Assembly: GCA_964511375.1 (NCBI GenBank)
Contig: CAZEEW010000006.1
Location: 279-64,278, forward strand
DNA length: 64,000 bases
Source: an uncultured Gammaproteobacteria bacterium
Lineage (GTDB): Bacteria; Patescibacteriota; Patescibacteriia; Magasanikbacterales; GWA2-37-8
Direction: 5' to 3'
Part shown: in pieces, positions 40,303 through 64,000 of the stretch
Position numbering within the stretch: the stretch's first letter is position 1
Layout: each line of letters opens with the position of its first letter
Position numbers and translations under genes: made by a program
The notes under the pieces: model-generated
Seen by the model: only the letters and a program-made list of their open reading frames with translations
Databases searched by the model: none
Told to the model about the DNA's origin: nothing

Positions 40303-40314
40303 GTTAAACGAAAA

Positions 40315-41337: not shown

Positions 41338-41427
41338 ATATTATTCATTTTTTTGATTTAAAACACGCCATATGGTATTGAAAACTAAAAAGAACACCCT
41401 GACAAGAGCGTTCTATCAAAATACGAT

Positions 41428-44254: not shown

Positions 44255-44314
44255 GAACGCACTTAGAAAAATACGTTGTTAGTATAACATATTTTCTTCT
44301 ATTCGTCATTAGTC

Positions 44315-45106: not shown

Positions 45107-45109
45107 AAG

Positions 45110-45994: not shown

Positions 45995-46063
45995 AGTAAT
46001 TTTATGCTAACATTGCAAAATATCTATGGCAACCTGGCAGAGCATTATTAGATATACCGTAAC

Positions 46064-46092
46064 TGACAATACGGTCATTTGTGTGATATAAA
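46064..46092 (+). promoter_or_regulatory. sigma70-like promoter TGACAA-17-TATAAA for cassette 3
   Basis: Read directly; followed by hairpin GTCCGC-AAAGC-GCGGAC (46098-46114) and RBS GGAGGA 5 nt before ATG. Confidence 0.4.
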
Positions 46093-46139
46093 ATCAGGTC
46101 CGCAAAGCGCGGACTTCATCACCGTCACGGAGGAAACCG

Positions 46140-46658
46140 ATGTCCAAGCGCAACTGGGTGGCTATCAACGAGCTCGAGAACTACCATTTCCGCGTCCTGG
46201 TCGCGACGACCGACGACGCGGAGATCCTGGCCGGGCTCGAGCGGGGCTTCCCCGAGCTCTTCCTCGCGGGCGAGGAGGCACCCCTCTACCCGGTGCCCCT
46301 GTCGGTTGTCCAGAGCCGAGCCCGGGAATTCTCGATGCGCGAGTACCCCGATGAGAAGTGCTGGCAAGAGGACCAACACTTCATCCTGTGCTGGGGCACC
46401 TGCGACGACCTCGACATCCCGACCGCCTTCACCTGGGATGCCGACAACGAGGAGATCCCCCCGGAAATCCTCCAACAGTTCATGGGCCAGAGAGCCCAGG
46501 CCGGCATGACGGTCGTGATCGACGACCGTCGCTACCTGGTCTGGTTCATCGCGTTCAAGGTGGGCGAGGAGATCAAGCCCGGGGACACGTTCGAATCCCC
46601 ACCCAAGCTCGACAGGCTCGACCTCGTCGATGCCGACTTCGTCGACCTCGAGAGCTGA
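46140..46658 (+). CDS. acidic 172-aa hypothetical protein, GC-rich foreign-looking gene
   Basis: ORF track; strong RBS; about 65% GC with GC3 bias; no recognised motif. Confidence 0.5.
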   Translation: MSKRNWVAINELENYHFRVLVATTDDAEILAGLERGFPELFLAGEEAPLYPVPLSVVQSRAREFSMREYPDEKCWQEDQHFILCWGTCDDLDIPTAFTWDADNEEIPPEILQQFMGQRAQAGMTVVIDDRRYLVWFIAFKVGEEIKPGDTFESPPKLDRLDLVDADFVDLES

Positions 46659-46686
46659 TGGCGCTCGCGGCCCAAGGAGGGCCAGA

Positions 46687-46754
46687 CCGGGGCAGGAGAT
46701 ACGTCTCCTGCCCCGGTCAGCTACCTAAACATCTTTTGAGAAGATGTTTTTTTA
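46687..46754. terminator. tandem hairpins: perfect 13-bp stem CCGGGGCAGGAGA-TACG-TCTCCTGCCCCGG then terminator AACATCTT-TTGAG-AAGATGTT + T7; second hairpin also serves the convergent Y-family polymerase gene
   Basis: Read directly. Confidence 0.6.
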
Positions 46755-46758
46755 ATAC

Positions 46759-48069: not shown

Positions 48070-48073
48070 ACCT

Positions 48074-48646
48074 TTAGTATTTACGGATAACGGCTTTAAC
48101 CACGGCTGCGATTTTTAATTCTTCCGCTGGTACAATATCTGGATATTTTTGGTTAGCGGCTTCCAAAAAAACATTACGACCAGATTTACGAAAATATTTC
48201 ATGGTCCAAGCACCATCTACTTCAGCAATAACAATATCTCCGGTTCTGGCATTAGCACTGCGATCAACTAAAACCATATCTCCCGGCATAATACCGGCAT
48301 CTTTCATTGAATCACCAGAGACTTTTAACATGTAGGTCGCTTCTTTGTTAGAGACCAAATATTCATCTAAAGTAAGGGTATCAGCTAACTCTTCTTCGGC
48401 GGCGGTTGGGAAACCAGCTTCGACCACTCCTAAAACGCGTAAAGACCGAAAGGTTCGGCCCGGAAGTAACCGGCCGGTTTTGTCTTTATCTAAGAAACCT
48501 TCTTCGATTAAAACTTCAGTGGTTTCATAAGCAGAACTTTTAGATTTAAACCCCAACAGCTCCCCGAGTTCTTTATAGCTTGGCATGCGATGCTGAGTTT
48601 GAAAAAACCTAACGATTTTTTGTTTATATTTATGTTTATTTTCCAT
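48074..48646 (-). CDS. lexA: LexA repressor (S24 peptidase)
   Basis: N-terminal wHTH, Ser-Lys dyad region SGDSMKDAGI ... K, Ala-Gly cleavage context. Confidence 0.85.
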   Translation of the reverse strand: MENKHKYKQKIVRFFQTQHRMPSYKELGELLGFKSKSSAYETTEVLIEEGFLDKDKTGRLLPGRTFRSLRVLGVVEAGFPTAAEEELADTLTLDEYLVSNKEATYMLKVSGDSMKDAGIMPGDMVLVDRSANARTGDIVIAEVDGAWTMKYFRKSGRNVFLEAANQKYPDIVPAEELKIAAVVKAVIRKY

Positions 48647-48661
48647 ATGCAGGTATTTTAA

Positions 48662-48675
48662 CGAACGTTCGTTCG
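48662..48675. promoter_or_regulatory. LexA operator, Cheo-box type CGAACGTTCGTTCG (CGAAC-N4-GTTCG)
   Basis: Exact match to Gram-positive-type SOS box consensus, 16 nt upstream of lexA start codon. Confidence 0.6.
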
Positions 48676-48762
48676 GTTGTCAACTATTAAATAAGTTAGT
48701 TATCCACTTAAATTCCTGCTAAAACAAAAAAGCCTATTATCAGGCTTTCCTTAAAAGTTACC

Positions 48763-49176
48763 TCAATCATTAACGGTACGACGCGCCGCTTTAACTTTTG
48801 AACGTATTTTCTTACTTGCTATGCGTCTAAGCTTAGACGCATAAGTTGGTTTAGTGGAATAACGTTTCTTCTTAACCTCAAGTGCCTTATTAACTAGAAC
48901 GTTTAAACGAGTAACAGCCAGATTACGATTACGTAACTGAGACCGCTCTGTTTCAGAAACAACCACAAGTTCTCCCCTATGCGTTAAACGATTACGCAAC
49001 TTGCTCTTAACCAATTCTTTTTCTAAGGCAGAAAGTAGATCGGAATTATCTACTCTCCAATATACCGAAACTTTGGTAGAGGTTTTATTAATATTCTGCC
49101 CGCCAGCGCCAGACGAACGAGCGAATACAAAACGTAATTCGTTTTCCGGGATATATTTTCTGCTAAAGAAGGGCAT
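48763..49176 (-). CDS. arfB: ArfB-family peptidyl-tRNA hydrolase (ribosome rescue factor)
   Basis: GGQ motif (SGAGGQNINKTSTKV) in a 137-aa protein with basic C-terminal tail. Confidence 0.7.
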   Translation of the reverse strand: MPFFSRKYIPENELRFVFARSSGAGGQNINKTSTKVSVYWRVDNSDLLSALEKELVKSKLRNRLTHRGELVVVSETERSQLRNRNLAVTRLNVLVNKALEVKKKRYSTKPTYASKLRRIASKKIRSKVKAARRTVND

Positions 49177-49178
49177 AG

Positions 49179-49940
49179 CTATTTAGCCAGGAAGATCGGG
49201 AATTTAAACCTAAGAATATAACCGTTCCTTGTAACTCTTGCGTAACGAGAATTTTTACCGATTGTCTCTTGGATTTTGAATATATCCTTAGAGCCTATGT
49301 TATACCGCTCGACATGCTCTTTTTCAGTAATAATAAGGTCCTTACTTGTACCAATTTTCTTAAAATAACTAAAACCCGCTGACTTGTGTATTTCTTTTAT
49401 ATCTTTCGACTGAAAATGACGATTACCAATATTTGGCGTTTGGTTATATACCTTATCCAATTTGTCCCGGTCAATTAAGTTAGTTATATAAGCTGGCTGA
49501 TTTACAAACAACCCTCCGGATTTTAGATGCTTTCTAATTATCTTTAAGACCCTAATCTGCAGTTCTGTAGTTGGAAAATAGTCTAAGGAGCTTCGCATTA
49601 TTACCACGTCAAACTGTTTTCGAAGATCAAGTTTTAAAAGATCAGCGCAAATCTTTTTCGTTTCTGGATTGGTATTCCCACGCAAATGTTTATTAGAAAT
49701 ATCTACTAAAGTCAGTCTCCCCTGCCCAAGTTTTTCTAACAATCGCTCGCCAAGTAGCCCAGAGGCCGAAGCGACGTATAAAATTTCCAATGGTCCTCTG
49801 GGTAAAAGTGGTTTAACAGCTTTAATAAACATGGTAATATTCTCTTCATTAGAGAAATAATTACCATAAGTCTTGAGCCATTCCTTACCCAGAACTTTCT
49901 TATCCCGCTTTAGGTTATAAGCAGCAGCACGTGAAAACAT
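49179..49940 (-). CDS. class I SAM-dependent methyltransferase-like protein
   Basis: Gly-rich motif I-like VASASGLLG and acidic motif II-like DVVIMRSSLDY. Confidence 0.4.
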   Translation of the reverse strand: MFSRAAAYNLKRDKKVLGKEWLKTYGNYFSNEENITMFIKAVKPLLPRGPLEILYVASASGLLGERLLEKLGQGRLTLVDISNKHLRGNTNPETKKICADLLKLDLRKQFDVVIMRSSLDYFPTTELQIRVLKIIRKHLKSGGLFVNQPAYITNLIDRDKLDKVYNQTPNIGNRHFQSKDIKEIHKSAGFSYFKKIGTSKDLIITEKEHVERYNIGSKDIFKIQETIGKNSRYARVTRNGYILRFKFPIFLAK

Positions 49941-49943
49941 AAT

Positions 49944-50516
49944 CTATTCAGTTGCCATAATTATCTTCCCACATTTTTCTTCTATATTACGGACAACTGT
50001 GAACACCTCATCAATGGTTGGTTCGAGGGCAATAAATTCATAACCGTTTTTTAACCGTGCGGTTACACGCCGATCATGGGTTTGCGTGATTTGCCTGACT
50101 TGACATTCTTCAATTAAACCAACCATGGTTTTCCAATTCTCCTCAATAGTAACTGAGGGGTTGGTAGAGGGCGCTAAACAAACAATCGCGCACTTGTTAT
50201 CACTTAAACAACGGGCGGCTTTTTGACAGCCAGAACGTTTACTATCATCTACTGGTAAAACACAATCATCGTCAACTACACAACTATAATCAGTTGATTG
50301 GAAAATTTCGTATGGACAAGGAGCAAAAGAGCAATCAGGACCAGTTCGACCGACCGCGGAACCATCAGCACAAATTTTTGCTTCAGTAGTACAAGCAGTT
50401 TCTTTTGGCTGGTTAAAAAATATTAACCATCCCAATACCAAACCGGTGGTTAATAATAACAAGACCAAAAACAAAAGTAATAAGGAAGATTTTTGCTTTT
50501 TAAAAACTTCTAACAT
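49944..50516 (-). CDS. membrane-anchored Cys-rich secreted protein
   Basis: N-terminal TM/signal, 14 Cys in mature part. Confidence 0.35.
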   Translation of the reverse strand: MLEVFKKQKSSLLLLFLVLLLLTTGLVLGWLIFFNQPKETACTTEAKICADGSAVGRTGPDCSFAPCPYEIFQSTDYSCVVDDDCVLPVDDSKRSGCQKAARCLSDNKCAIVCLAPSTNPSVTIEENWKTMVGLIEECQVRQITQTHDRRVTARLKNGYEFIALEPTIDEVFTVVRNIEEKCGKIIMATE

Positions 50517-50522
50517 ACAAAC

Positions 50523-50723
50523 TTACCATTTTAATTCAAACTCCAACTCCCCACCATTAACATCCTTTTCATGCTCAATTCGAAATTCTACCTCTTCCGG
50601 TACTTTGATTTTCTTTTTCTTAACTTGGATAACAAAACTCGTATCGCTTTCGAGATTTTCAATCAAACGTTTCAATTTATTAATGAAAGCTTGCTTAGAA
50701 ATATTTTTTTCAATTTCACGCAT
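50523..50723 (-). CDS. amphi-Trp domain protein
   Basis: 66 aa ending ...ELEFELKW, matching the characteristic C-terminal ELEIELKW of amphi-Trp domain proteins. Confidence 0.55.
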   Translation of the reverse strand: MREIEKNISKQAFINKLKRLIENLESDTSFVIQVKKKKIKVPEEVEFRIEHEKDVNGGELEFELKW

Positions 50724-50801
50724 ATATTTTATATTAGCATTTTAAGTATAACACCGGATAAATATCATTGTCCAGCATGATTGACAGTACTTTAAACAGT
50801 C

Positions 50802-53800
50802 GTGTGTAATAAAAGTACAGCCAATTTAAAACAAAATATCTTTATACTTTATTTTATTAATATGAAACAAGTCAAACATATTTTCTCGTCCATTACGTTT
50901 GTGACAATATTAAGTTTTGTACTGCTCCCTTTCCAAGGAGTGTTCGCTGCCGCGTACTTAACACTGGAAAGCTTTAGTGGGCCACCGACAACTGTCGTAG
51001 CTAAGGGTGGTGGCTACACGCCCGGCGAAACCATATCGCTCTACGTTGGGTCAGTCGGCAATACGCCGGCAGGAACAGCGACAGCGGGTGAAGATAGTTT
51101 CTGGGGCCCGGTTAATTTAAATCTCCCACCCAACACTCCACAAGGGTCAGTCACTATTACAGCCGTAGGGACGATTAATACTGATCCTCAAACTAATAGC
51201 TACTATGTTGTGCCGTTTAATCCGAGCATTACCATGACCGGTAACGATACCCCTGGTAGTATTTTAACAATTACTGGGCAAGGATATGCACCAGATGAAT
51301 CTGTGCGTTTTGAAATAAACGGACAAGAAGTTGGTACGGTTAATACCGACGCCACAGGTAGTTTTAATGACGGTAATGCAACAATACCTAGTTTAGTGGT
51401 TGGAAATTATGAATTACATGCGGTCGGTCAGTCATCAGGAGCCAAAGCGATTGGTTATCTATATGTTGGCACATTTTACCCAAGCGTAACCCCGTCAACA
51501 TATTATCTGCTACCAACCCAAGTTCTAAACTTCTCAGGCTCTGGTTTCGCAGCCAATGAAACAATCCGCGTATTCGAAGGACAAAACCAGACAGCGCTGG
51601 CATCTTTTTCCGCTGAAGCCGATGGTAGTTTTACAAGCCAAGGAAATCTAACTATGCCTTTAAGCTTTGCAGGTACTAAAGTATTTAAGCTTGTTGGTTT
51701 AACTAGTGGTGGTACAGCACAGATAGAAGTAACCGTTGGGAACTTTAATCCATATGTTTCGCCTTCATCCTACTACCTCTTACCAGGTGAAGTCTTAACT
51801 TTTTCCGGTGGTGGCTTTGCAACGAATGAAACCGTAGAGATTTTTGCTGGAAAAACTAAGGTTTCCCAATTCACAACTGACGAAAAAGGAAATTTTTCGG
51901 CAGCCGGAAGTTATGTTATCCCCTTTGACTGGTTAAACTCCAGTCGAACATTCCGCTTGGTTGGACAGACTGGCGGCGGAAGCGCTGATGTGACTCTAAC
52001 AGTTGGACAATTTAATTCCTTAGTAAGTCCTTCTGCTTATTTCCTCATGGCCGGTGACGATATTAGTTTTTCTGGTAATGGATTTTCAAGTGGCGAAACA
52101 ATCGTCATACATGAGGGTAGTAATCCAGAGCTTCTTTCGACAATTACTACTGATCAGAATGGCAACTTTACTAATTCTGGTACCATAACTATTCCTTTTA
52201 ACTGGGCAAACAGTAGTCGAACTTTTTATTTCACGGCGGAAAATAGTCGAACCGAAGCGCAAGTAATTATTACTGTTTCGGAATTTTCACCTCAAGTATC
52301 CCCTTCCAGCTACTATGTTCTCCCCGGAGATACAATTACCTTTAATGGCTCGGGATTTGGTAAGGGGGAAAAAATAAACGTGACAGAAGGCAATAACAAT
52401 ACTGTCTTATCCACCATAACAGCAGATGATACCGGAGCATTTACCGAGAACGGAGCTTTTTACATTCCTTATGATTGGAGCAATAAAAGAACTTTACATT
52501 TGCGCGGTTTAAGTAGCAACGCTTTAAGCCATGTGGACATAACCATTGCCTCCTTCAATCCAAGTTTAGTTCCCTCCACCTATTATGTTCTACCCGGTCG
52601 GACAGTAACCATATCTGGAAACGGCTTCGCCGCTAACGAAGAAGTGGAAGTTAAAATGAACGGTGGTTCGCCAATTGCAATTATGACTACTTCAACTGGC
52701 GGGTTTCAAGACGCTGGACCATTTACTGCACCATTTAGTGGAAACAGCATCCTCTTCGAAGTCCGCGGCAAAACCAGCGGCGTGAATAGCAGCTTGAATA
52801 TTACTCTCGGCACCTTATCCCCGGTGGTTGAGTTAGATAATTATTACGCTCAACCAGGAACAACGATTAATGTATTAGCTACTGGGTTTGGGTCAAACGA
52901 AACCCTAACAATTAAATTAGGTTCCGCGACCACTCAAGCTACGACCAATAGCGAAGGCACCGCAAGCTCAACACCGATCACTATCCCGTTAGACGTAAAC
53001 GGACCAATGGTCAATGTTACGATTAGCGGTAACACTAGTGGTGTAAGCGGGTCTACTTCGCTTACACTCGCACCATTTGCTCCACAACTTGAACCAAGCA
53101 CCTGGTACACGACTCCTGGTACAACCGTAACTTTCACAGGATCTGGATTTAGCGGTAATGAAACGGTTAATATCCAGCTGAACAATGCCAATGTCGGGAC
53201 AGCCACAACAAATGCGAACGGTGGATTTACAAGTGAAGCCATAACTATTCCCTATAATGCCTCGAGCGCACACTTCACCTTTAACGGACAGTCGTCACAT
53301 GCCAATGCTTCCATCGACATTTCTCTTGCCGGCTTTATCCACCAAGTCGAGCCAAGCACTTGGTATACACCAGCAGGATCAAATGTTACCTTTACAGGTA
53401 GTGGCTTTGCGAACGGAGAAACTATTACGATAACGTTAAACAACAACGAGGTTGGAACAGTAACCGTAAACGGTGAAGGTGGGTTTACTACCAACGCGAT
53501 TATCATTCCTTACGGCACTAATGCCGCCAACTTTAAGTTTGTCGGCAGTAGTAGCGGAGCCAATGTTTCAATACCGATTACTATCGCGGAATTAAGTGCG
53601 GCGGTGGTGCTTTCAACATACTATGCTAATGGAGGATCACCATTAACAGTGACAGGTATGGGATTTGGCAGCAATGAAAATGTGGCAATTACTTTTGGTG
53701 GTCAAAATTTAGGGACCGCAACAGCTAACGGAAACGGTGACTTTACCCTGGAAACAACTGTGCCATATCTAACCGCCGGAGACAAGTCTGTGCAGGCCAA

Positions 53801-54128
53801 AGGAGAAAACAGTAACGCAATCGCCACCACCAACTTTACTATGCCGACTGTATATGTCAGCCTGGAACTAGGTTCCTATGCCGGAGCGTCAGGCAGTAAT
53901 GTTAACTTCATAGGAAGTGGCTACTTGCCAAGTGAGCCAATCCAGGTAATGACGGATCGTACTGGGGAAAATGTAGTACACAATTTCTCTAGCGATGCCT
54001 CGGGTAATTTCAATAACTCTGGTTATACCGTGCCAACTGATTTCGTAGAGGGGCCGTTGAATATAACTGTCAAAGGCGAACACGGTCTGACGCCAATTAA
54101 TATTACCTATTATGTAACCGGTGGCTAG
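50802..54128 (+). CDS. large secreted/anchored protein built of about 13 tandem 87-92-aa Ig-like (IPT/TIG-like) repeats
   Basis: N-terminal TM/signal; recurring unit ...P(S)TYY(L)LPG-TVTF-G-GF--NETV-I--G...; Thr/Ser/Asn/Gly-rich. Confidence 0.7.
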   Translation: MCNKSTANLKQNIFILYFINMKQVKHIFSSITFVTILSFVLLPFQGVFAAAYLTLESFSGPPTTVVAKGGGYTPGETISLYVGSVGNTPAGTATAGEDSFWGPVNLNLPPNTPQGSVTITAVGTINTDPQTNSYYVVPFNPSITMTGNDTPGSILTITGQGYAPDESVRFEINGQEVGTVNTDATGSFNDGNATIPSLVVGNYELHAVGQSSGAKAIGYLYVGTFYPSVTPSTYYLLPTQVLNFSGSGFAANETIRVFEGQNQTALASFSAEADGSFTSQGNLTMPLSFAGTKVFKLVGLTSGGTAQIEVTVGNFNPYVSPSSYYLLPGEVLTFSGGGFATNETVEIFAGKTKVSQFTTDEKGNFSAAGSYVIPFDWLNSSRTFRLVGQTGGGSADVTLTVGQFNSLVSPSAYFLMAGDDISFSGNGFSSGETIVIHEGSNPELLSTITTDQNGNFTNSGTITIPFNWANSSRTFYFTAENSRTEAQVIITVSEFSPQVSPSSYYVLPGDTITFNGSGFGKGEKINVTEGNNNTVLSTITADDTGAFTENGAFYIPYDWSNKRTLHLRGLSSNALSHVDITIASFNPSLVPSTYYVLPGRTVTISGNGFAANEEVEVKMNGGSPIAIMTTSTGGFQDAGPFTAPFSGNSILFEVRGKTSGVNSSLNITLGTLSPVVELDNYYAQPGTTINVLATGFGSNETLTIKLGSATTQATTNSEGTASSTPITIPLDVNGPMVNVTISGNTSGVSGSTSLTLAPFAPQLEPSTWYTTPGTTVTFTGSGFSGNETVNIQLNNANVGTATTNANGGFTSEAITIPYNASSAHFTFNGQSSHANASIDISLAGFIHQVEPSTWYTPAGSNVTFTGSGFANGETITITLNNNEVGTVTVNGEGGFTTNAIIIPYGTNAANFKFVGSSSGANVSIPITIAELSAAVVLSTYYANGGSPLTVTGMGFGSNENVAITFGGQNLGTATANGNGDFTLETTVPYLTAGDKSVQAKGENSNAIATTNFTMPTVYVSLELGSYAGASGSNVNFIGSGYLPSEPIQVMTDRTGENVVHNFSSDASGNFNNSGYTVPTDFVEGPLNITVKGEHGLTPINITYYVTGG
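51472..54060 (+). repeat. diverged tandem coding repeats (period about 265-285 nt) inside the 1108-aa gene
   Basis: Protein-level periodicity; DNA copies are diverged, not identical. Confidence 0.6.
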
Positions 54129-54142
54129 AAAAGGACAAAAAA

Positions 54143-54190
54143 ACGAGCCGAAAGCAAAATACATTATTGCCCCGTCGGCTCGTTTTGTTA
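54143..54190 (+). terminator. terminator hairpin ACGAGCCGA-23nt loop-TCGGCTCGT + TTTGTT after the repeat-protein gene
   Basis: 9-bp perfect stem and U-tract 15 nt after stop codon. Confidence 0.45.
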
Positions 54191-54563
54191 TTAATAATAT
54201 GTTACTTAGCGGCTCAAAAAAGCTAAAAGCTCATACACCACAAAAACCGGCCAAACTAATGCTTTTAACAAACCGACCACACCCATCCAGAATCCTGTGG
54301 CGTTACTTATGTAATAAATAGCGGCTCCGATTATGCCCAACCCGTACACAGCATCACCGCCATGACCATTTTTATTCCCGCACATATATATTGAATTAGT
54401 GAATTTAAATCCTCCTAAATTTTAGCACAAAGCGGGCTGAATAACAATTTTAGAGTTCGGTTTTGTCAGCTTGACCTTTATAACCATTTTCACTACGTTA
54501 AATATATAGTGACAATTAACTCCTAATGGAGTTTAAACGTTAATTTTTAATGTTTATCTACAT

Positions 54564-54947
54564 ATGCCAAACACATCTATTATGGGCAACCGCATAGCTA
54601 CAGTCAGGACTTTGGGGGGTATAGATATTGTTCTTGGACTGTGGTTAATTGTCAGCCCATTCCTCCTTGGTTATGCTAATCTAACTACTCCACTTTGGAA
54701 TAGTATTATAATTGGTGTTGCCGTAGCCGCACTTGCCGCTACCCAAACCAGTCGCGAGGGTTATCGCCGGGGCTGGACAGGCTGGGTCAATGTTGTTCTT
54801 GGTATTTGGTTGATCTTTTCTCCTTTTATACTGGGCTTTGCAGACGTGACATCAGCATTATGGAATAACATTATCCTGGGTATTGCTATTACAGTGCTCG
54901 CCGCCTGGAGCGCGCTCTATTCCGCTCCGAATAATACTCAAGTGTAA
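54564..54947 (+). CDS. SPW-repeat membrane protein
   Basis: Two copies of W-x-x-SPF-LG (WLIVSPFLLGY, WLIFSPFILGF) each followed by LWN, four TM helices. Confidence 0.6.
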   Translation: MPNTSIMGNRIATVRTLGGIDIVLGLWLIVSPFLLGYANLTTPLWNSIIIGVAVAALAATQTSREGYRRGWTGWVNVVLGIWLIFSPFILGFADVTSALWNNIILGIAITVLAAWSALYSAPNNTQV

Positions 54948-55000
54948 CCACAAATAAAGTAAAACCAGCCTTTTAGGCTGGTTTTATATTAAAGTCGTAT

Positions 55001-55498
55001 TTACTTTTTGGCTTTAACTTTTTTTGCCGGAGTTTTAACTTTTTTTGCACCCAGCTTTTTAGCTTTAACTTCTTTCTCTACAGATTTTGGTTCAGCCTTT
55101 AAATTTTGACTAGGGCTGGAGAGAGCAAATAACATCGTCATAATTTTCTCGAGCTTCAGATTTAAAGCCTCAAAATCTGCCTTTGTTACACCATTAGATA
55201 CTGGCGTGCTTCTCCGGTCAAAGCCGCTCGATCCAGTACTCTCCCGACGGAAACTACCGCCAAAACTTTTTTGGGCAAAACGAGGACTCGGACCACCGTC
55301 TTTTTTAAAGCAGTTATTACAAAGCACTGGTCGATCACCAGTTGGACGAAACGGAACCTGACAATCGTCTCCACATTCGGTACAAGTAGCTGAAAACATC
55401 TGTTTTGGTCCACCGCCATGCCCGCCAAAACGTCGTGGTCCACCACCAAAACCACCACGACCACTACGTCCTTTATCAAACCGGTTAAAATTTCCCAT
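55001..55498 (-). CDS. CxxC-x17-CxxC zinc-ribbon protein with N-terminal RGG/Gly-Arg-rich region and C-terminal Lys-rich (histone H1-like) tail
   Basis: CTEC-17 residues-CNNC exactly fits the CxxC-x17-CxxC domain spacing; RGG repeats; KKxxAKKVK tail. Confidence 0.55.
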   Translation of the reverse strand: MGNFNRFDKGRSGRGGFGGGPRRFGGHGGGPKQMFSATCTECGDDCQVPFRPTGDRPVLCNNCFKKDGGPSPRFAQKSFGGSFRRESTGSSGFDRRSTPVSNGVTKADFEALNLKLEKIMTMLFALSSPSQNLKAEPKSVEKEVKAKKLGAKKVKTPAKKVKAKK

Positions 55499-55589
55499 AG
55501 AATGAAATAGTTAATAAACGTGCAACAGCCGACAGTGTAGCACAATATCCATAATAATACAAATCATTAACAGAAGCTCGAGCCAGTTT

Positions 55590-56054
55590 TTAACGCACTG
55601 CTACTCGTCCACCAATCTCGATCAAAAGATCAGTTAGTGATACTAGTTCTTTGCTACGCTTGGCAGAGATAAAATCTTCGGCAAGTACTTCTAAACGCTC
55701 TAAAGCCTCTTTTAATTTTTCTCTCCCCGCTGCTGTCGAACTGACAAAACGTACCCGGGCGTCTTCTTCCGCTGGACCACTTTCTACATAATGTACTTTT
55801 TCCATAGGAAGCAACAGACGTGTAACGCCCGAAGGGGTCATGCCAACTTTGTCTGCAAGATCAACACGACGTAACTTCTGATCTTCAGCTTGGTCCAGGT
55901 AATACAAAATTAAGAATTCGTTAAAACCAAGACCGCCTAAACCACGGTCAAAACGGTTGTTCAGGATAGATTGGGTTTTGCCTATGGTGATAAAAAATTT
56001 AATCGCCGGATTATTATTGACCATAATATATTTGCTATATAATTGATTAATCAA
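55590..56054 (-). CDS. MarR-family transcriptional regulator
   Basis: wHTH LRRVDLADKVGMTPSGVTRLL. Confidence 0.75.
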   Translation of the reverse strand: MINQLYSKYIMVNNNPAIKFFITIGKTQSILNNRFDRGLGGLGFNEFLILYYLDQAEDQKLRRVDLADKVGMTPSGVTRLLLPMEKVHYVESGPAEEDARVRFVSSTAAGREKLKEALERLEVLAEDFISAKRSKELVSLTDLLIEIGGRVAVR

Positions 56055-56153
56055 GTATATAACAAGTAAACAAACCTGTCAAATTGTATGCCTGTTACAA
56101 CTGAAGAAAGATGGGGTATAATTAATGTGCTAATTAATTACTAAGCTATTAAT

Positions 56154-56681
56154 ATGACAAAACAACCAATTTCTCGCAGAACTAAATTTATCGTAGCGCT
56201 CGCAATTATCGGTGCTATCATCTTCGGTAGTTATGCAATATATTTAATATATTCCTTAGCAACCTATAAAGGAGACTTCTACCCACCGCGGGGAGAAAAT
56301 GTAGAAAAAGAAACAATAGTTTTAAACACTAACTACATTAATACTGTGGAATGGCCGCCCGTGACAACGATTCAAACTGGCGTCAGCAGCGTTGACTGTA
56401 AGGAAACGAGAGCGGAAAGCAGTTTGCCAGATCGAGTCAGACGCCAGACAATTAACGGGAGAGACTATTGTATTAGTACTAGAAGTGAAGGTGCAGCGGG
56501 CAAGACATATACCATGTACACATATACAACGATTAAAAATAACAACTTAGTTAAAGTTGACTTTACTTTGAAGTATCCCCAATGCCTTAATTATGATGAG
56601 CCAGAAAAAACGGCATGCACTGAAGAAAGAGAAAACTTCAATTTAGACGAACTAATCGATCGATTGGTTAGAGCAATATAA
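56154..56681 (+). CDS. hypothetical membrane-anchored protein
   Basis: ORF track; N-terminal TM. Confidence 0.4.
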   Translation: MTKQPISRRTKFIVALAIIGAIIFGSYAIYLIYSLATYKGDFYPPRGENVEKETIVLNTNYINTVEWPPVTTIQTGVSSVDCKETRAESSLPDRVRRQTINGRDYCISTRSEGAAGKTYTMYTYTTIKNNNLVKVDFTLKYPQCLNYDEPEKTACTEERENFNLDELIDRLVRAI

Positions 56682-56724
56682 CTACTTCCCTATTAAACTA
56701 CTCGGCATTTCCATTTTTGTTTGC

Positions 56725-57426
56725 CTATTGAATACCCAAAGAATTTATATCTTCATGTGATATAACATTCAGGTTAACGAGACGATTGAGTAAAGTTTCC
56801 ATGTCTGTGTACAAAATTGGCAAATACCCAACTGTGTTTGCTGTTTCCAGACTTTTGACGGAGTCATCAATAAAAATTAAATCTTTTGTTTCTACGCCCA
56901 GACGTCCAGCAAAGATTCTAAATATTTCCGGATCCGGTTTCATTACCTGCTCTTCCACTGAAAAGACAACGACATCAAAAAGGTCCTCGACGCCATGTTT
57001 TCGGATTTCTCCTGCGCCAGCAGACGACATATTGCTTAGCAATCCCACTTTATATCCGCGCTGTTTCAGGAGTTTAACCAGAGAAAACATTGGTTGGTTA
57101 ATAGCACCACCGGACAAGTCTTCGATATATACGAGGAAACGATCTAATTCTTCAGCTCGACCGAGTTCAGTGAAAATTATCTTCCAAAAATCCTGATACT
57201 TGCACTCCCGAATATTTAATAAATGATTATGACGAAAATACACCTCGCGTGCTTCCTCAACGGGAATATGCAAAAAATCTGCTACCGTATGGTACAACTT
57301 AAAAGCGTAAACAAATAATACCCCACCCCAGTCAAAACCGATGGCTTTTCTACCCATAAATATTAGTAGTCTAATTCTTGAAAAGATTTGGATTATTTTT
57401 AATAAATAATCCAAGAAGACGCGCAA
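56725..57426 (-). CDS. HAD-superfamily hydrolase
   Basis: Motif I GFDWGGVL, motif IV-like FIDDS; likely shorter true start. Confidence 0.55.
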   Translation of the reverse strand: MRVFLDYLLKIIQIFSRIRLLIFMGRKAIGFDWGGVLFVYAFKLYHTVADFLHIPVEEAREVYFRHNHLLNIRECKYQDFWKIIFTELGRAEELDRFLVYIEDLSGGAINQPMFSLVKLLKQRGYKVGLLSNMSSAGAGEIRKHGVEDLFDVVVFSVEEQVMKPDPEIFRIFAGRLGVETKDLIFIDDSVKSLETANTVGYLPILYTDMETLLNRLVNLNVISHEDINSLGIQ

Positions 57427-57994
57427 AATAACCTTTAGTTAAGCCTTTTAAATAAAGGTATCCGGCAGCTGAAGCGAAAAATGCGCCCAAACTATCGCTA
57501 ATTAAATCCCACATGGTATCTACTAACCCGGTAGTTTGCATTTTTGTACCAAATATTTGATCAATAGTAAACTCATATATTTCCCACAACGCACCCAAAG
57601 CCAAAGAAAAAGCGAAAGAAAAAACCGCTAACCAAACAGGACGAACGCTTAGATTGTTAGTTTGGAAGAGCACCAGTAGGATCACAAAACCAGCCAGAGC
57701 GAAAGCCATAGCGGAGCTGGTATGCAAAAGTATGTCCCACCACCAAAAATAATCATAAAATTTAGTAACTGAACCTAGAAAAAGGCTAGCGTAAACAAAC
57801 AAGATAATTATAATTTCAAATCCAATTGGTATGTCTATCCTGTATTTTTTCTCAAACCAGGAAGGCAAAAAGGTTAAAACAATGGTAAAAGTCGAGGTAA
57901 ACAAATTTAACCAACTTGAATAATAGAAAGAAGTGACTACAGCAGCCAATAAAGTGAGCCTTAGAATGTTAACAAATATTTTCATAATAGCCAC
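57371..57994 (-). CDS. hypothetical polytopic membrane protein
   Basis: ORF track; 5-6 TM helices. Confidence 0.4.
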   Translation of the reverse strand: MAIMKIFVNILRLTLLAAVVTSFYYSSWLNLFTSTFTIVLTFLPSWFEKKYRIDIPIGFEIIIILFVYASLFLGSVTKFYDYFWWWDILLHTSSAMAFALAGFVILLVLFQTNNLSVRPVWLAVFSFAFSLALGALWEIYEFTIDQIFGTKMQTTGLVDTMWDLISDSLGAFFASAAGYLYLKGLTKGYFARLLGLFIKNNPNLFKN

Positions 57995-58558
57995 TCTAGG
58001 ATAGTACAGATCTTATTTTTAGACAAGCGTTAAAAATAGTTCCAAGTATTGATGGCTCGGTCATAAAATTTGCTCCAAAATAGTCTGAACTCTTTTCTCT
58101 TTTGGGGCAAAGGGTAAAATCATAAGGTCATAACCTAAATCCTGGTAAACCTTTTTAATAATTTCTCCCTCTCTTTCATAATGAGTAATATCGTAAGGTC
58201 GGTGCGAAGCCAATTCATAAGTATCCTTGTTTCCTTCAAAAATACTACCAAATCATAGGTGCAAGATTTGGAACTTCAAGCATTTTTGACCCTAATTCAA
58301 AATTGTCAAAAATAGCAAAACCAATCTGATCAGGAATCTTCGATCAAAAAAGTTAACTGCTTGGGCGGCATTCTGTTCGCCGGCAAGTAAGGCCGCTTAG
58401 TTTAAGCAGATCCGTAAGATTTTCAGTTGTGGCTAATGTTATATTCATAAAGCTTAATAGTTAAAATATAGTTTGGATTTTAACTCCCGTCAACAAAAAA
58501 TAACGGTCTTGATAAACCACTATTTTATTCGCGGGTATACGGGGCAACTTTTCAACCA

Positions 58559-59902
58559 TCAGCTTCTCTGAGTTATGATTCTACAATTTAGCGATCCACC
58601 ATACACAGTATTCTCAAATCCACTCCTAACTTGTTTCACATTTACGCCAGAATTAGTTATAGCAGCAAAAGATGCATTATCTAACTGTGTCATTGGTCCG
58701 TTTCCATCTGAGCTATACCGGGGCATATACATTCGATAAGCACCACCGGGTTCCTGTTCTACTAAACCATTATTATATGTTACTAACACATCATTAGATG
58801 AGCCTGGAACCAAAGGAATACGCACTACCTCATACCCACCCTCCCTCATTTGAACTGCAATGGCATCTAAATAGGCTTGCTTTTCTGCAATTTCTGACGC
58901 AAGATAATCTTCGTCAAACAATGCGTCAATCATATCCGAATGCATCCTAATTTTACTAGCCAAACCTCGAAACTCATTGTCAACACCAAGAGACTGCCGC
59001 ATGTGAGTCAAGGTCCCCTGCAGTTCCTTTTCAAATTCTTTTTTGAAAGAATCTCTATACTTAGCAAGAGCGTTTACTGCTAATTTGACATCGCCAACCG
59101 CAACTTTTTTTCTTCCGAGCGGTGTAACACAAAGATCGAGGTGGAGAATTGGTTGATAGTAAAATCGAGGCGCATCTTTTTGTAACGGTCCTAACATTTC
59201 CACTGGTTGAGAAAACCAATCCGACATACGCTTCAGCATCTCTGCGATGTTTTGTTCAGTGGGTTTTTTACCAGCTTGTTCGAGGTTAAAATGAATGATT
59301 TTTGGCCCGACAAACAGCGTACCATCAACAGACTTCACATTGCCTCCATCCATAAAAAACGGAGATGATTCTGTGGTCCTGAATCTTCCGTCAGATTTAC
59401 ATAGAACTTTAGCAAACCTTTCAACATCTTGAACTTTCCCCAAAACCCTCTCCATACCAGCAGGGATGATAAGATGGGTACTCTGTCCTGCAACTAACAA
59501 ATAGTCTCTAATCCATCTTTTTTGAACCGATTGAAAGTTATTTGGGACAAAATTAAAAAGACCACTTCCTTCTAGACTTTCGCTTAGATCCTTTTCTATC
59601 GAACTCTTGTCAGAAATTACGACTTCAACAGGAGTGCTGCCGTCGATCTGCTCACGAATTTGTCGTAAAAAAAATAGTTCTAGCAAAGCAGACTCTGACA
59701 TTTCAGTACCACGGCCTGAAAAAGAAAAATCACTATCTCCGCTGAAAAGACCTATTGGAGTACTAACGATTGCCTTTGTTATTCTTCCTTCTGTATCTGA
59801 TACCACTTCTCTTGGTCTGGGGGCCATTTCTGCTCTTTCTATAACAGATTCTCTGGGCTGTTGTTGGAGCAATGGGTAACTTTGAGGAGATTTCTCAGAC
59901 AT
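58559..59902 (-). CDS. guanidino-group-modifying enzyme, agmatine deiminase/PAD_porph-like, with about 100-aa N-terminal extension
   Basis: C-terminal YGGSLNCRIITQ resembles the catalytic-Cys motif GGGNIHCITQQ of agmatine deiminases. Confidence 0.45.
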   Translation of the reverse strand: MSEKSPQSYPLLQQQPRESVIERAEMAPRPREVVSDTEGRITKAIVSTPIGLFSGDSDFSFSGRGTEMSESALLELFFLRQIREQIDGSTPVEVVISDKSSIEKDLSESLEGSGLFNFVPNNFQSVQKRWIRDYLLVAGQSTHLIIPAGMERVLGKVQDVERFAKVLCKSDGRFRTTESSPFFMDGGNVKSVDGTLFVGPKIIHFNLEQAGKKPTEQNIAEMLKRMSDWFSQPVEMLGPLQKDAPRFYYQPILHLDLCVTPLGRKKVAVGDVKLAVNALAKYRDSFKKEFEKELQGTLTHMRQSLGVDNEFRGLASKIRMHSDMIDALFDEDYLASEIAEKQAYLDAIAVQMREGGYEVVRIPLVPGSSNDVLVTYNNGLVEQEPGGAYRMYMPRYSSDGNGPMTQLDNASFAAITNSGVNVKQVRSGFENTVYGGSLNCRIITQRS

Positions 59903-60110
59903 AATAACGGGTGTATAAAAGTTAATATTTATTAGAATATCACGAAGTTAAAATCCGGTCTAGGTTATATAATAAAGAGCGGGCTTTACGAAAAAACAGG
60001 CTTTTTTAAACCTGCTTTTCCACAACTGCTCGCCCTTTTGGGAAAAATACGAACGGATTTGGCCGAAATTTAAGATTGGCGGGTAGTAGAAAAATTCCCC
60101 ACATACCACA

Positions 60111-60407
60111 TGGCTCCGGGGGCGGGATTCGAACCCGCGACCAATTGATTACACTTACCTACTTGTTTCCAAATAGTGTGGACTATATCATCACCCCGAC
60201 GATGTCGGGGGCAAGGCGCTTCGACCAATTACCTGGTCTACTCCTTTCGGATAGTCTCTGAACCTTCCTGCTTTCGCAGGCTTGGCTGCTGATTACCATT
60301 GCCTTTCGACTTTAGGCTTCCAGCAATTCACCTTGTTTTCTGCCTTAATTACTTAAGGTAGCTGCGTTAAACCACAGTCAACTGCGCTACCGCTGCGCTA
60401 CCCCGGA
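60111..60407 (-). tRNA. tRNA-Asn(GUU) gene interrupted by a group I intron in the anticodon loop (exons 60374..60407 and 60111..60151)
   Basis: Perfect 7-bp acceptor stem (UCCGGGG/CCCCGGA) pairs across 297 nt; D-arm GCGC-AGCGGUA-GCGC; T-arm GCGGG-UUCGAAU-CCCGC; spliced loop CUGUUAA gives anticodon GUU with U1-A72 and G73 as in E. coli tRNA-Asn; CCA encoded. Confidence 0.65.
60152..60373 (-). ncRNA. group I self-splicing intron (222 nt) inserted between nucleotides 35 and 36 of tRNA-Asn
   Basis: Core elements AAUGGUAAUCAGCAGCCAAGCC and GGUUCAGAGACUA match conserved P3/P4/P6 and P7/J8-7 sequences of group I introns (Tetrahymena GUUCACAGACUA; Azoarcus AGAGACUA, GCCAAGC); 5' exon ends in U with GCAG internal guide pairing; intron ends in G. 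Confidence 0.65.
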
Positions 60408-60535
60408 ATAAATTGTAACGAGAAAATTATACAATATTGTTTTAAATTCGTCAATGGGGATTTTTGCCGATGGCTATCGCTGTTTATTGTGGTATGCATT
60501 TGCTTTGAATGCTAGGGGGCAAGGGCGAATCGGTC

Positions 60536-60582
60536 GCCGTAAGTAATTCAAACACCCCGTTTACTTACGGGGTGTTTTAATT
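60536..60582. terminator. overlapping alternative hairpins (CCGTAAGTAA/TTACTTACGG vs AACACCCCG/CGGGGTGTT) downstream of typA
   Basis: Two mutually exclusive 9-10-bp stems; T-run only on plus-strand side. Confidence 0.3.
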
Positions 60583-60586
60583 TTGT

Positions 60587-62392
60587 TTAGATATTTGCTT
60601 CAGCTGTACTTTTTCTCGCCGCGCGGACACGATCGTTTTCTGTTAAATACTGCTTACGAAGACGAACGCTCTTGGGTGTCACTTCAAGATATTCATCTTC
60701 AGCCATTATTTCGAGCCCCCTTTCTAGGGTTAATTCTAAGGGAGCCGTAAGTTGGAGAGCAAAGTCGGCATTTGAAGATCGCATGTTGGTTAGATGTTTA
60801 CCTTTGATTGGATTAACTGTCATGTCTTGGCCTTTAGTGGTCATGCCAATAACTTGGCCTTCATATACATCGACATTCGGCTCAACATACAAAATACCAC
60901 GCTCTTGGAGATTAGATAATGAATAGGCCAAGACTTTACCAGTTTCACCTGATATCATGGAACCATAATCTCGATGCTCAATTTCTCCAGCGTATGGCTT
61001 AAAGCCAATTACTTCTGTACAAAGTATACCTTCCCCTTTAGTATCAACAACAAACTCATTACGGTAACCTAAAAGACCACGGGTTGGAATGTTATAAATT
61101 AAGCGAGTGTGGTTTTCTTCCGGAGTCATGGCGACCATGGTGCCTTTACGTTTGGAAAGTTTTTCAATAATTGTGCCACAGAACTCGGCTGGGACATCGA
61201 TCGTTGCTTCTTCAAAAGGTTCCAATTTAATACCGTTTTCTTCTTTAATAATTACTTTCGGCATCGAAACTTGCAATTCAAAACCTTCACGACGCATGTT
61301 TTCCATGAGAATAGCAATATGCAACTCACCACGTCCATCTACTTTGTAGTAATCGGCAGAAGAAAAGTCAATGCGCAAACCAACGTTCACCTCAAGCTCC
61401 TTCTCTAAACGTTCCTTCAACTGACTATTAGTTACATATCTCCCCTCTTTACCGGCAAAAGGAGAATTGTTAACTAAGAAACTTAAAGAAATTGTTGGTT
61501 CATCGATTTTAATAGCTGGTAATAACTCTCGGTTTTGTTCAGTTGTAACAGTGTCACCAATATATATATGTGGTAAACCAGCGATCATAACAATATCTCC
61601 GGCAATGGCTTCAGACACCTCTTTACGATTCAAACCTTCAAATGTAAATAGTTTGGTAATAGTTCCGGTAAAAACTTCGCCCGTAGATTTTTTGTCATAT
61701 ACCTTATCTCCAGTTTTAATTTTTCCATCATAAACCCGGCCAATACCCATACGGCCGAGATAGTTGTCATAAGCCAAGTTAAAAGGCTGGAAGGCAAAGG
61801 ATGCTTCAATATCTACTTTAGCCGGAGTAACCTTTTCTAAAATAGTATCAAGAAGCGGAGTAAGATCTTTAGATTCATCGGACAATGACATCTTGGCTAC
61901 ACCTTCCTTGGCAATAGCATACACAGTCGTAAAATCTAATTGTTCATCGTTTGCACCCAGATCCATGAATAGCTCTAAAACGCGTTCTACGGCCCATTCT
62001 GGGCGTGCTGCTGACTTATCTATCTTATTCATCACCACAATTGGCTTAAGCCCCAATTCCAAGGATTTCTTCAAGACGAATTTGGTTTGTGGCATCGGAC
62101 CTTCTTGAGCATCAACTACCAAAAGAACGGAATCAATGGAACGCAAGACGCGTTCAACCTCCGAACCAAAGTCCGCATGTCCAGGAGTGTCTACAATGTT
62201 TATTTTTGTACCTTTATAAAAGACACTGGTGTTTTTAGAATAAATCGTAATACCGCGCTCTTTTTCTAGAGCGTTAGAATCCATACTGGTAGTCGCATCC
62301 GTAACCATTCCAGTCTGGTGCATCAAAGCATCGGTCAGACGAGTCTTTCCGTGGTCAACGTGGGCAATAATCGCGATATTTCGTATTTCCAT
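60587..62392 (-). CDS. typA: translational GTPase TypA/BipA
   Basis: AHVDHGKT G1 motif and full-length EF-G-like architecture of about 600 aa. Confidence 0.9.
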
Positions 62393-62523
62393 AAGTAATA
62401 TGTGGCCCTATTTTTTGGGCCGACAGCGCATTATAACTCAAAACATTCACTTTGTCAATATCTTTAGCGGAAAAATCTGTATTAAAAAACCCTCTAGTTA
62501 AAGAGGGTTTTGAAATTGAGCTC

Positions 62524-62724
62524 TTAAACGCGAGTAACGTTTACAGCGCGTGGACCCTTTTCAGAGTCCTCGACATCAAAGGACACAGTATCACCAACCT
62601 TAAGATCAGAAAACTGTACGCCATTTAATGCTGTTTCGTGGAAGAAGATATCTTTTTGTTCACCTTCTACAGCGATAAAACCAAAGTGCTTATCGCTTAC
62701 CACATTTTTAATAGTACCTTGCAT
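62524..62724 (-). CDS. cspA: cold-shock protein (CspA family)
   Basis: RNP1/RNP2 motifs KGFGFI / VFFHE in a 66-aa protein. Confidence 0.85.
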   Translation of the reverse strand: MQGTIKNVVSDKHFGFIAVEGEQKDIFFHETALNGVQFSDLKVGDTVSFDVEDSEKGPRAVNVTRV

Positions 62725-62851
62725 ACTAGACTAAAAACTGACTGAGTAAAAAATAATTTAGCTGAAATTCGACGAACTTTTCTAAATAAATTATCTGAGT
62801 ATACTATAACACATGTTATCTAAATAGTCAAACTTTCTCGGTATGAATTTC

Positions 62852-63943
62852 TTAAATCAACTGGTAATCTCTCGAAGTTTTGCGGGCACCACGGAATATT
62901 ACGTCCATCATATTTTCCACTCCGAACTGTCGGCCATCTAAGAAACCACCCATAGCTGCTTCTGCCAGCCATCCACTATTTACCCAGTCAAATAACCATT
63001 CATTTGCGTAACGTGGATCTTCTTGCGAGATACCCGCGCCCACTGTCTTTAGCCAGGTCTTATTGAAAACTTCCTGGCTGCCCAATGGTGGAGCGATGAT
63101 AATCGGGATGCCTAGGGCACTATAAAATACCAGTTCACTTGGTTTCGTCCACAACACGTCGGTTGTGCGCAAGGACTTATTAAAATCAGCAAAATACTCT
63201 TCTTTATTTAAAGCAAAAATGATTTTTATATTTTTGCCTACTAATTTAGTTAAGTGAGATTCTGATAACAATTTTTGGAAGTACAAGTAAACATCATTAC
63301 GCGTGCCAGCTACTAAGTTAAGATTTATCTTTTGATCTAACAACGCCCCATGCAAGCTGCGCAACAAATCTTTAGCAATCGTTCGCTGCGCACCAGCACC
63401 ACCAACTGCAAAAGACAGAGTTAATGGATGATGATGTACTTCGTTTAATTTCGAGTCTTTAAAAAATTGCTTAAACGTACCACTATATTTCTCGCGGTAC
63501 TTTTTCTCTGGGTCTAAATTTACAATTCTTTCCGACAGATCGGCCTTAAGAACTCCCAACTTGCTTGTCCCTAAATTTTCTTCCGGTAAAGGAAAGCCGG
63601 TTAAAAAAATGTTTTCATTTTTTACACCATATAATCCCAAACGAGCCGTCGCTCTTCGACAGGGGGTCAGATACTTTATTCTACTTTTCCTCGGATTTAA
63701 CGGCGCCCAAGCCCGAGCAATGTCGCTGTCACAAATGACACAATAAATATCTTCTTTAAAACCATGCTCTTCCGCCATAAAGGCGACGGCGGGAAAAGTT
63801 GTAATGAGTGGTGTGTTTTTTTGATTAAGTAGCCTCACCAATTGTTCTCCCCAACCCCCTCTAACTGTGCGGTAAGTAGTAATAAGCTGGAAGTTGGGAC
63901 GAGTCAAGTCACGTGCTGGGTAGAAAGGCTGGATTCGCTGCAT
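62852..63943 (-). CDS. hypothetical protein (possibly glycosyltransferase-like); gene may extend past the window edge
   Basis: ORF track only; no confident motif. Confidence 0.3.
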   Translation of the reverse strand: MQRIQPFYPARDLTRPNFQLITTYRTVRGGWGEQLVRLLNQKNTPLITTFPAVAFMAEEHGFKEDIYCVICDSDIARAWAPLNPRKSRIKYLTPCRRATARLGLYGVKNENIFLTGFPLPEENLGTSKLGVLKADLSERIVNLDPEKKYREKYSGTFKQFFKDSKLNEVHHHPLTLSFAVGGAGAQRTIAKDLLRSLHGALLDQKINLNLVAGTRNDVYLYFQKLLSESHLTKLVGKNIKIIFALNKEEYFADFNKSLRTTDVLWTKPSELVFYSALGIPIIIAPPLGSQEVFNKTWLKTVGAGISQEDPRYANEWLFDWVNSGWLAEAAMGGFLDGRQFGVENMMDVIFRGARKTSRDYQLI

Positions 63944-64000
63944 CCGATCAATTAAAAGATCAAATAGAAAATCACCTACAATTGGTAGGTTTTTAGAACG

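Follow-up and report, generated by a model that had tools for sequence, protein, structure and literature searches.

The window, i.e., the whole 64,000-nt (64-kb) stretch of contig CAZEEW010000006.1 that was analysed, contains a gene for tRNA-Asn(GUU) whose anticodon loop is interrupted by a group I intron. On the minus strand, the sequence of 60111..60407 is UCCGGGG...GACUGU / GGUUUAACGCAGC...GUAAGUG / UAAUCAAU...CCCCGGAGCCA (5′ exon / intron / 3′ exon), and the insertion point falls after position 35 of the anticodon and before position 36 (CUGU/intron/UAA). ARAGORN recognises the joined exons as a tRNA-Asn(gtt) of canonical form, 75 nt long. Its anticodon loop is CUGUUAA, its CCA is encoded, and it has U1-A72 and G73; all 7 of the 7 bp of the acceptor stem are Watson–Crick pairs, the D stem has 4 bp, and the anticodon and T stems have 5 bp each. 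The presence of the intron-split tRNA-Asn gene is confirmed far beyond chance, since the joined exons give a canonical tRNA-Asn and the intervening sequence has a clear Rfam match.

The Rfam search revealed the family RF00028 (Intron_gpI) at 60383..60159 (-), covering the model completely (1–253 of 253) and scoring 82.8 bits, where the gathering score is 50 (E = 1.5e-19). Intron_gpI is the sole Rfam family detected in the 64-kb window; besides the intron, default ARAGORN and Rfam searches detected neither tRNA nor rRNA nor any further Rfam family there. The helix drawing, made by combining the Rfam alignment with inspection, is given in Table 1; counting the tRNA stems, 86 of the 86 proposed base pairs are standard. 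The pairs of P1 are CG, UA, GC, UG and GC, closing a loop of 6 nt, and the 5′ splice site is marked by the wobble between U35 (60374) and G9 (60365), two nucleotides that the Rfam alignment likewise puts at the consensus positions. The P5 pairing taken from the Rfam alignment is non-canonical in this intron, and for this reason GCCU/AGGC was adopted instead. When the intron alone is folded without constraints, the minimum free energy (MFE) structure (-71.7 kcal/mol; z = -4.40 relative to 200 dinucleotide shuffles) recovers P2, P3, P4, P6, P6a, P7.1, P7.2, P8 and P9, and five loops of the intron (L2, L6a, L7.1, L7.2 and L9) are GNRA tetraloops.

The intron encodes no protein and, at 222 nt, has no room for one; the sole open reading frame (ORF) in the region (60076..60261 (+), 61 aa) is regarded as spurious because it is antisense to the ribozyme core and overlaps it. 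Two other identities of the element were considered and rejected. Transfer-messenger RNA (tmRNA) was found neither by ARAGORN nor among the Rfam matches, and the gene has U1 and C3-G70, in contrast to the tRNA-Ala-like domain of a tmRNA with its G1 and G3•U70, which is accompanied by a tag reading frame. The protein-spliced tRNA introns of archaea and eukaryotes are short, usually lie at 37/38, form a bulge-helix-bulge motif and have no ribozyme core; an intron of this type is ruled out by the 35/36 position and the full group I ribozyme.

The original prediction, made from the sequence letters, had described a tRNA-Asn(GUU) split by a 222-nt intron at 35/36, with a perfect acceptor stem, canonical D and T arms, the loop CUGUUAA, U1-A72 and G73. 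ARAGORN on the joined exons and the register of P1 bear this out, and the location and features hold, with one correction, the minus-strand orientation of the gene. The GCAG guide pairing with exon CUGU to give a U•G wobble, the terminal G of the intron, the lack of room for a homing endonuclease and the exclusion of tmRNA had been proposed as well and agree with the present results, as do the outcomes of two of the checks named there, the RF00028 search and the modelling of P1–P9.

Table 1. Features of the split tRNA-Asn locus and its surroundings in the window (intron positions convert to window coordinates as 60374 minus intron position)
Feature	Coordinates	Strand	Remarks
Split tRNA-Asn gene	60111..60407	-	297 nt: 34-nt 5′ exon, 222-nt intron, 41-nt 3′ exon
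tRNA-Asn 5′ exon, UCCGGGGUAGCGCAGCGGUAGCGCAGUUGACUGU	60407..60374	-	34 nt; acceptor 5′ strand, D arm, anticodon-stem 5′ strand, C32 U33 G34 U35
Group I intron, GGUUUAACGCAGC...GGUAAGUG	60373..60152	-	222 nt
P1	60362..60377	-	exon CUGU (60377..60374) and intron G1 with C8-G12 (CGCAG, 60366..60362)
P2	60358..60343	-	6 bp, GUAA loop
P3	60335..60329 with 60218..60212	-	7 bp
P4	60325..60320 with 60292..60287	-	6 bp
P5	60317..60301	-	4 bp, GCCU/AGGC (60317..60314 with 60304..60301)
P6/P6a	60286..60262	-	3 bp, then 5 bp, GAAA loop
P7	60258..60252 with 60185..60180	-	6 bp, bulged A; pseudoknotted with P3
P7.1	60251..60242	-	3 bp, GAAA loop
P7.2	60238..60223	-	6 bp, GUAA loop
P8	60210..60194	-	7 bp
P9	60176..60159	-	7 bp, GAAA loop; followed by 7 nt, the last being the terminal G
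Terminal guanosine (omega-G)	60152	-	3′ splice site G/UAA; intron end ...GUAAGUG
tRNA-Asn 3′ exon, UAAUCAAUUGGUCGCGGGUUCGAAUCCCGCCCCCGGAGCCA	60151..60111	-	41 nt; U36 A37 A38, anticodon-stem 3′ strand, variable loop
tRNA-Asn 3′ exon, continued (same coordinates)	60111..60151	-	T arm, acceptor 3′ strand, G73, encoded CCA
Promoter-like sigma-70 site, TTGACG-17 nt-TATAAT	60426..60454	-	11/12 consensus; -10 hexamer ends 18 nt before the tRNA 5′ end
Palindromic hairpin	60550..60577		11 bp, 6 GC pairs; 10 nt past the TypA stop, ~95 nt upstream of the tRNA promoter
TypA/BipA	60587..62392	-	upstream of tRNA-Asn
Cold-shock protein	62524..62724	-	upstream of tRNA-Asn
DUF6938 protein	62852..63943	-	upstream of tRNA-Asn
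447-aa ORF	58559..59902	-	downstream, 208 nt past the tRNA-Asn 3′ end

A scan of one genome per bacterial or archaeal species with the pattern GGTTCAGAGACTA-N45-75-GAKATAGTCC gave at least 119 loci, which by record title belong mostly to Saccharibacteria, Paceibacterota/Parcubacteria and other lineages of the candidate phyla radiation (CPR). Exon joins were tested by combining every upstream position ending in U or C with every downstream position ending in G and running the products through ARAGORN. The split of tRNA-Asn(GTT) at 35/36 (CTGT/...G/TAA) was found in at least 74 species-representative loci, i.e., 74 of the 119 among the matches listed, to which all locus counts given here refer. 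CPR/Patescibacteria names stand on 57 of these 74 loci by record title, and the introns are either short (209–335 nt, 49 of 74) or long (519–629 nt, 25 of 74). Introns at 36/37 of a tRNA(CAT) of Met/Ile2 type account for 7 loci and an intron at 35/36 of tRNA-Asp for 1, and at 37 loci no tRNA-compatible split was obtained. The closest relative among the matches listed is from a Saccharibacteria metagenome-assembled genome (MAG; L011), with 78.5% identity over positions 1–295 in a blastn comparison; an identical genome was not among these matches.

Covariation was assessed in a MAFFT alignment of the window copy with the 49 short-intron members (50 sequences, 625 columns), onto which the structure of the window copy was projected. 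Standard pairs fill 87.3% of the paired cells, compared with 71.3% in column shuffles and 35–46% when the 3′ partners are slid by 1–3 columns; the covariation score is 0.418, compared with 0.134 in the shuffles and at most 0.119 after sliding, and the observed value was reached in 0 of 500 shuffles. Compensatory changes are plentiful in each of the four tRNA stems as well as in P2, P3, P4, P6a, P7.1 and P9. The tRNA helices 1, 3 and 20 of the alignment are 97.6–100% paired, with compensatory changes; the corresponding values are 97.7% for P3 (3 covarying pairs), 98–100% for P4, 100% for P6, 91.5% for P6a (5 covarying pairs) and 98% for P7.1, also with covariation, while P7 is invariant and 100% paired. 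The four exon–guide pairs of P1 (CG, UA, GC and UG) are each invariant in 50 of 50 sequences, and the fifth pair covaries (GC 23, AU 10, CG 9). The invariant columns include G256 T257 A258 A259 at the 3′ splice site, U1-A72 and G73, and the window copy retains every family-invariant column. The motifs AUGGUAAUCAGCAGCCAAGCC and GGUUCAGAGACUA, which the original prediction had taken for group I core signatures, are present in the window intron and fall into invariant or nearly invariant columns. The predicted P1–P9 structure is backed by strong covariation, with P5, P7.2 and P8 excepted.

The same intron can also be read with a shift of 2 nt, as an insertion in tRNA-Thr(UGU) that is spliced after U33 and after the G at 60154 and leaves the loop CU/UGUAA. 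The window sequence allows this (CU/GUGG...GUAAG/UGUAA, with U at -1 and G at the intron end), as do 55 of the 74 tRNA-Asn intron loci, and, according to Nakagawa et al. (PMC13011429), ARAGORN and tFind often miss tRNA-Asn genes split at 35/36 or name them Thr(UGU) 33/34, as they do for many homologues. The structure of P1, however, fixes the Asn register over the Thr one: in 50 of 50 sequences U33 pairs with A and U35 pairs with G, and therefore the invariant U-1•G wobble exists in the 35/36 register only. In addition, the Thr reading is impossible in 19 of the 74 loci and the Asn reading is possible in all 74; the family-invariant U1-A72 and G73 differ from G1 and U73 of three intron-less tRNA-Thr genes in related loci; and the sequenced in vitro product of a homologue is tRNA-Asn ligated at 35/36 (PMC13011429). 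Among the 11 intron-less tRNAs in the fetched loci there is no tRNA-Asn for comparison, so the choice between Asn and Thr was made from the register of P1, the identity nucleotides and the sequence published for the product. The independent covariation test supports the 35/36 splice register, and the probability of the Thr register is close to nil.

Relative to the Rfam consensus, the window intron has an insertion of 31 nt between P7 and P3′, which folds into two GNRA-capped hairpins, P7.1 and P7.2. Such hairpins in this place are the hallmark of subgroup IA, and they are found in the phage IA introns (T4 td, nrdB and sunY; Twort), some of which are associated with HNH or GIY-YIG homing endonucleases and which reside in protein-coding genes; the likeness of the window intron to them is one of IA architecture, and its host is a tRNA gene. 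On the basis of P7.1/P7.2 and the published classification of the homologues, the intron is described as IA-like, and the IC3 type, the kind known from cyanobacterial tRNA introns, was rejected for the same two reasons. The classical IC3 introns lie in the cyanobacterial and plastid tRNA-Leu(UAA) at 34/35, in tRNA-fMet at 33/34 and, at 36/37, in the Azoarcus tRNA-Ile(CAU) and the Agrobacterium tRNA-Arg(CCU). They share with the window intron a small size, the mostly ORF-less state, the position in the anticodon loop, a P1 that includes anticodon-loop nucleotides and, by prediction, self-splicing through the two-step mechanism initiated by guanosine, but they have no P7.1/P7.2, whereas the window intron has both and resides in Asn(GUU) at 35/36. 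The comparison with the Leu, fMet, Ile and Arg introns drawn in the original prediction is thus to be revised, as those introns are IC3. Its view of an intron at 35/36 of Asn(GUU) as something unusual is also out of date; the class is present in Williams 2020 (bioRxiv 10.1101/2020.01.27.920355) and in Nakagawa et al. (PMC13011429).

The study by Williams, which used the tFind pipeline, extended the settings of bacterial tRNA group I introns from 4 to 21, and the corresponding class in Williams' nomenclature is, according to Nakagawa et al., 'Asn.4Ug'. Nakagawa, Amikura, Omae and Suzuki (bioRxiv 2025; mSystems 2026, PMC13011429) reported group I introns at 35/36 in 15 tRNA-Asn(GUU) and 3 tRNA-Asp(GUC) genes from 95 complete Patescibacteria genomes. 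In that survey 25 of 28 introns at 35/36 belong to subgroup IA, and IC, which holds 81% of all bacterial tRNA introns surveyed, includes no Patescibacteria tRNA intron; four Patescibacteria tRNA-Asn introns contain HNH (PF01844) genes. The tRNA-Asn precursor of GCA_016700035.1 self-spliced precisely at 35/36 in vitro, as was established by sequencing the product, and a mutation of omega-G to C blocked exon ligation; in vitro self-splicing was also demonstrated for the tRNA-Asp of GCA_001029755.1 (PMC13011429). The tRNA-Asn 35/36 position is the commonest tRNA intron setting in Patescibacteria.

Judged from its sequence, the window gene belongs to this published, experimentally validated class. 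It shares with the Patescibacteria tRNA-Asn 35/36 introns the host tRNA, the insertion site, the context CUGU/...G/UAA, the GCAG guide, the core blocks GGUGAAUUG, AUGGUAAUC[A/C]GCAGCCAAG, GGUUCAGAGACUA and GAUAUAGUCC, the extra hairpins between P7 and P3′, and even the trouble in annotation, where the gene is missed or misnamed by tools. Full-length alignment with six members taken from Table S3 of Nakagawa et al. gave identities of 59–69% for the introns and 65–91% for the exons, e.g., 91% (exons) and 69% (intron) with the validated GCA_016700035.1, and 90% and 65%, respectively, with GCA_016699245.1 (Paceibacteria). The window intron differs from the published members in its minimal P1 loop of 6 nt; its host appears to be a Falkowbacteria/Magasanikbacteria-like organism of the Parcubacteria group, and the six aligned genomes are from Saccharimonadia, Paceibacteria and Microgenomatia. 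The exon and junction strings of the window gene were not found in the searched part of the supplementary tables of that work.

The long forms (519–629 nt) have the core, the site and the tRNA in common with the window intron, which, in contrast, has no ORF. These are L006, L010, L016, L021, L035, L036, L040, L049, L051, L056 and 15 other loci among the matches listed, and they contain an ORF, usually of ~100–120 aa, that occupies the P1 loop, with the 5′ splice site on one side and the GCAGC guide on the other. The ORF products contain CxxCGY...HH...CANCH motifs, with Pfam HNH scores of 18.1 and 19.7 bits, under the cut-off of 21.4, which agrees with the HNH genes reported previously (PMC13011429).

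Taken together, it is very probable that the locus is a tRNA-Asn(GUU) gene of a Parcubacteria-group Patescibacterium, split between U35 and U36 by a 222-nt, ORF-less, self-splicing group I intron of subgroup IA. Transcription from the gene's own promoter would yield a precursor of ~300 nt, in which the intron would fold into the P1–P9 ribozyme core and the internal guide GCAG would pair with CUGU of the anticodon loop, forming P1 and presenting U35 in the U•G wobble. An exogenous guanosine bound in P7 would attack the phosphodiester after U35, the terminal G (60152) would then occupy the same P7 site, and the freed 3′-OH of U35 would attack the G/U36 junction, which would ligate the exons into the 75-nt tRNA-Asn with the loop CUGUUAA, restore the GUU anticodon and release the intron. 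That the window copy splices, and does so without the help of proteins, is suggested by the family-invariant positions it has kept and by the published in vitro splicing of its homologue. Several points weigh against this interpretation. P10 is weak in the window intron, with only UAA opposite UUA and P1 not adjacent (by eye); P5, P7.2 and P8 show low pairing in the MAFFT alignment (42–54%; P5 42%, P8 54%), most likely a misalignment of length-variable hairpins; the IA assignment depends on the P7.1/P7.2 hairpins, of which P7.2 aligned poorly, and on the published class of the homologues; and the loci used for comparing the host were selected by the intron pattern, which biases the sample to intron-bearing genomes.

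Many group I introns, some IA introns included, depend on proteins in vivo, and a genuine intron that needs a host chaperone or maturase-like cofactor for efficient splicing in the cell would accord with the weak P10 and with a length of 222 nt, among the shorter ones in the family, and few peripheral elements. Nevertheless, the homologues from Saccharimonadia spliced in vitro within minutes to an hour with GTP alone (PMC13011429), and the window intron has the same core, five GNRA tetraloops for tertiary contacts and no ORF, so a requirement for protein is improbable. A decayed, catalytically dead intron is also hard to reconcile with the data. In that case the split gene would be a pseudogene, and the work would fall to another, uninterrupted tRNA-Asn gene of the same genome; ARAGORN shows no other tRNA in the 64 kb that are in view, and a second tRNA-Asn could lie outside them. 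However, a relic would hardly be expected to keep all family-invariant positions, standard pairs in every proposed helix, an Rfam score well over the threshold, flawless tRNA exons and a near-consensus promoter ahead of the gene, and this explanation is highly improbable. If the functional split gene were the only tRNA-Asn gene of a Patescibacterium with a reduced genome, all asparagine decoding would depend on ribozyme self-splicing, and splicing dependent on guanosine or GTP and Mg2+ might throttle the supply of tRNA-Asn according to nucleotide status; a regulatory role of splicing was raised as speculation by Nakagawa et al. (PMC13011429), and for the window gene such a role is an unlikely, though conceivable, one.

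The class, site, subgroup and self-splicing have already been published, so the locus opens no new question; its main value lies in annotation, and it adds a Falkowbacteria/Magasanikbacteria-like member to a family of at least 74 species-representative genomes. Default ARAGORN reported neither a tRNA nor a tmRNA in the 64 kb of the window. The intron mode (ARAGORN -i) called a tRNA-Ser(gga) and placed an intron of 206 nt at 29/30; this call is wrong and was not used for the boundaries. Because the default mode misses the gene and the intron mode miscalls it as tRNA-Ser(GGA), a genome annotated in this way would seem to lack tRNA-Asn, and completeness scores based on counting tRNAs would be lowered. 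The problem of missed tRNAs was described in Nakagawa et al. (PMC13011429).

Split tRNA-Asn genes also occur on contigs with other labels, ten of them 'uncultured Gammaproteobacteria' (TPA_asm MAGs; L037, L038, L048, L051, L078, L083, L084, L087, L101 and L112) and one each 'Woesearchaeota archaeon' (L050), 'Omnitrophica' (L036) and 'Bdellovibrionales' (L108). Some of the differently labelled loci are among the closest relatives of the window gene in the matches listed (L051 is 80% identical), and the odd labels could reflect mislabelling, mis-binning or horizontal transfer; similar mis-binning was suspected for a Pacearchaeota MAG (Williams 2020, bioRxiv 10.1101/2020.01.27.920355).

The intron core was also encountered at 36/37 of tRNA(CAU) in L007, L033, L041, L076, L082, L090 and L104, with the labels Pseudomonadota, Vibrio and Planctomycetota, and at 35/36 of tRNA-Asp(GUC) in a Campbellbacteria MAG (L074). 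The tRNA(CAU) hosts, called Met by ARAGORN, are probably Ile2, and both occurrences fit the published IA tree, in which the Patescibacteria Asn introns lie near the Ile2 and Leu introns of Pseudomonadota (PMC13011429). The same P7...P7′ core pattern is present in loci without a tRNA join, e.g., in Ruminococcus (L002), Lentibacillus (L004 and L109), Clostridium (L024 and L070) and Stenomitos (L043). Some loci of this kind (e.g., L019) end short of the 3′ exon; the others, many of which come from Bacillota, might represent IA relatives of the intron that reside in different host genes, such as protein-coding genes or tmRNA.

The host would be a Parcubacteria-group Patescibacterium because two proteins encoded upstream of the tRNA resemble those of such bacteria: TypA shares 70% identity across 595 residues with that of a Falkowbacteria MAG, and the DUF6938 protein, along its full length, shares 67% with that of a Magasanikbacteria MAG, both among the fetched intron-pattern loci. 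Falkowbacteria are placed in the Parcubacteria group of Patescibacteria in the NCBI taxonomy. There is partial synteny as well, since the DUF6938 gene of the Magasanikbacteria MAG is also located directly upstream of an intron-split tRNA-Asn. An identical locus is found in the assembly of run SRR5011273, where its contig is 13 kb long. The downstream 447-aa ORF has no Pfam match, and its copy in the Logan contig is likewise without a family on record.

The position of the promoter-like site ahead of the tRNA suggests that it drives the split gene; it is the only such site in 59850..60650, and one site does not exceed the yield of shuffled sequences (mean 1.4). The strong palindromic hairpin between TypA and this promoter was called a plus-strand terminator by the scan, but it may mark the end of the minus-strand TypA transcript. 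A weaker hairpin with a U-run, seen by eye at ~60016..59990 (-), could terminate the tRNA transcript. On the scale of the whole window, the minus strand holds 30 of the 31 ORFs that reach 250 aa or more, and the cumulative GC skew falls steadily across 1..64000.

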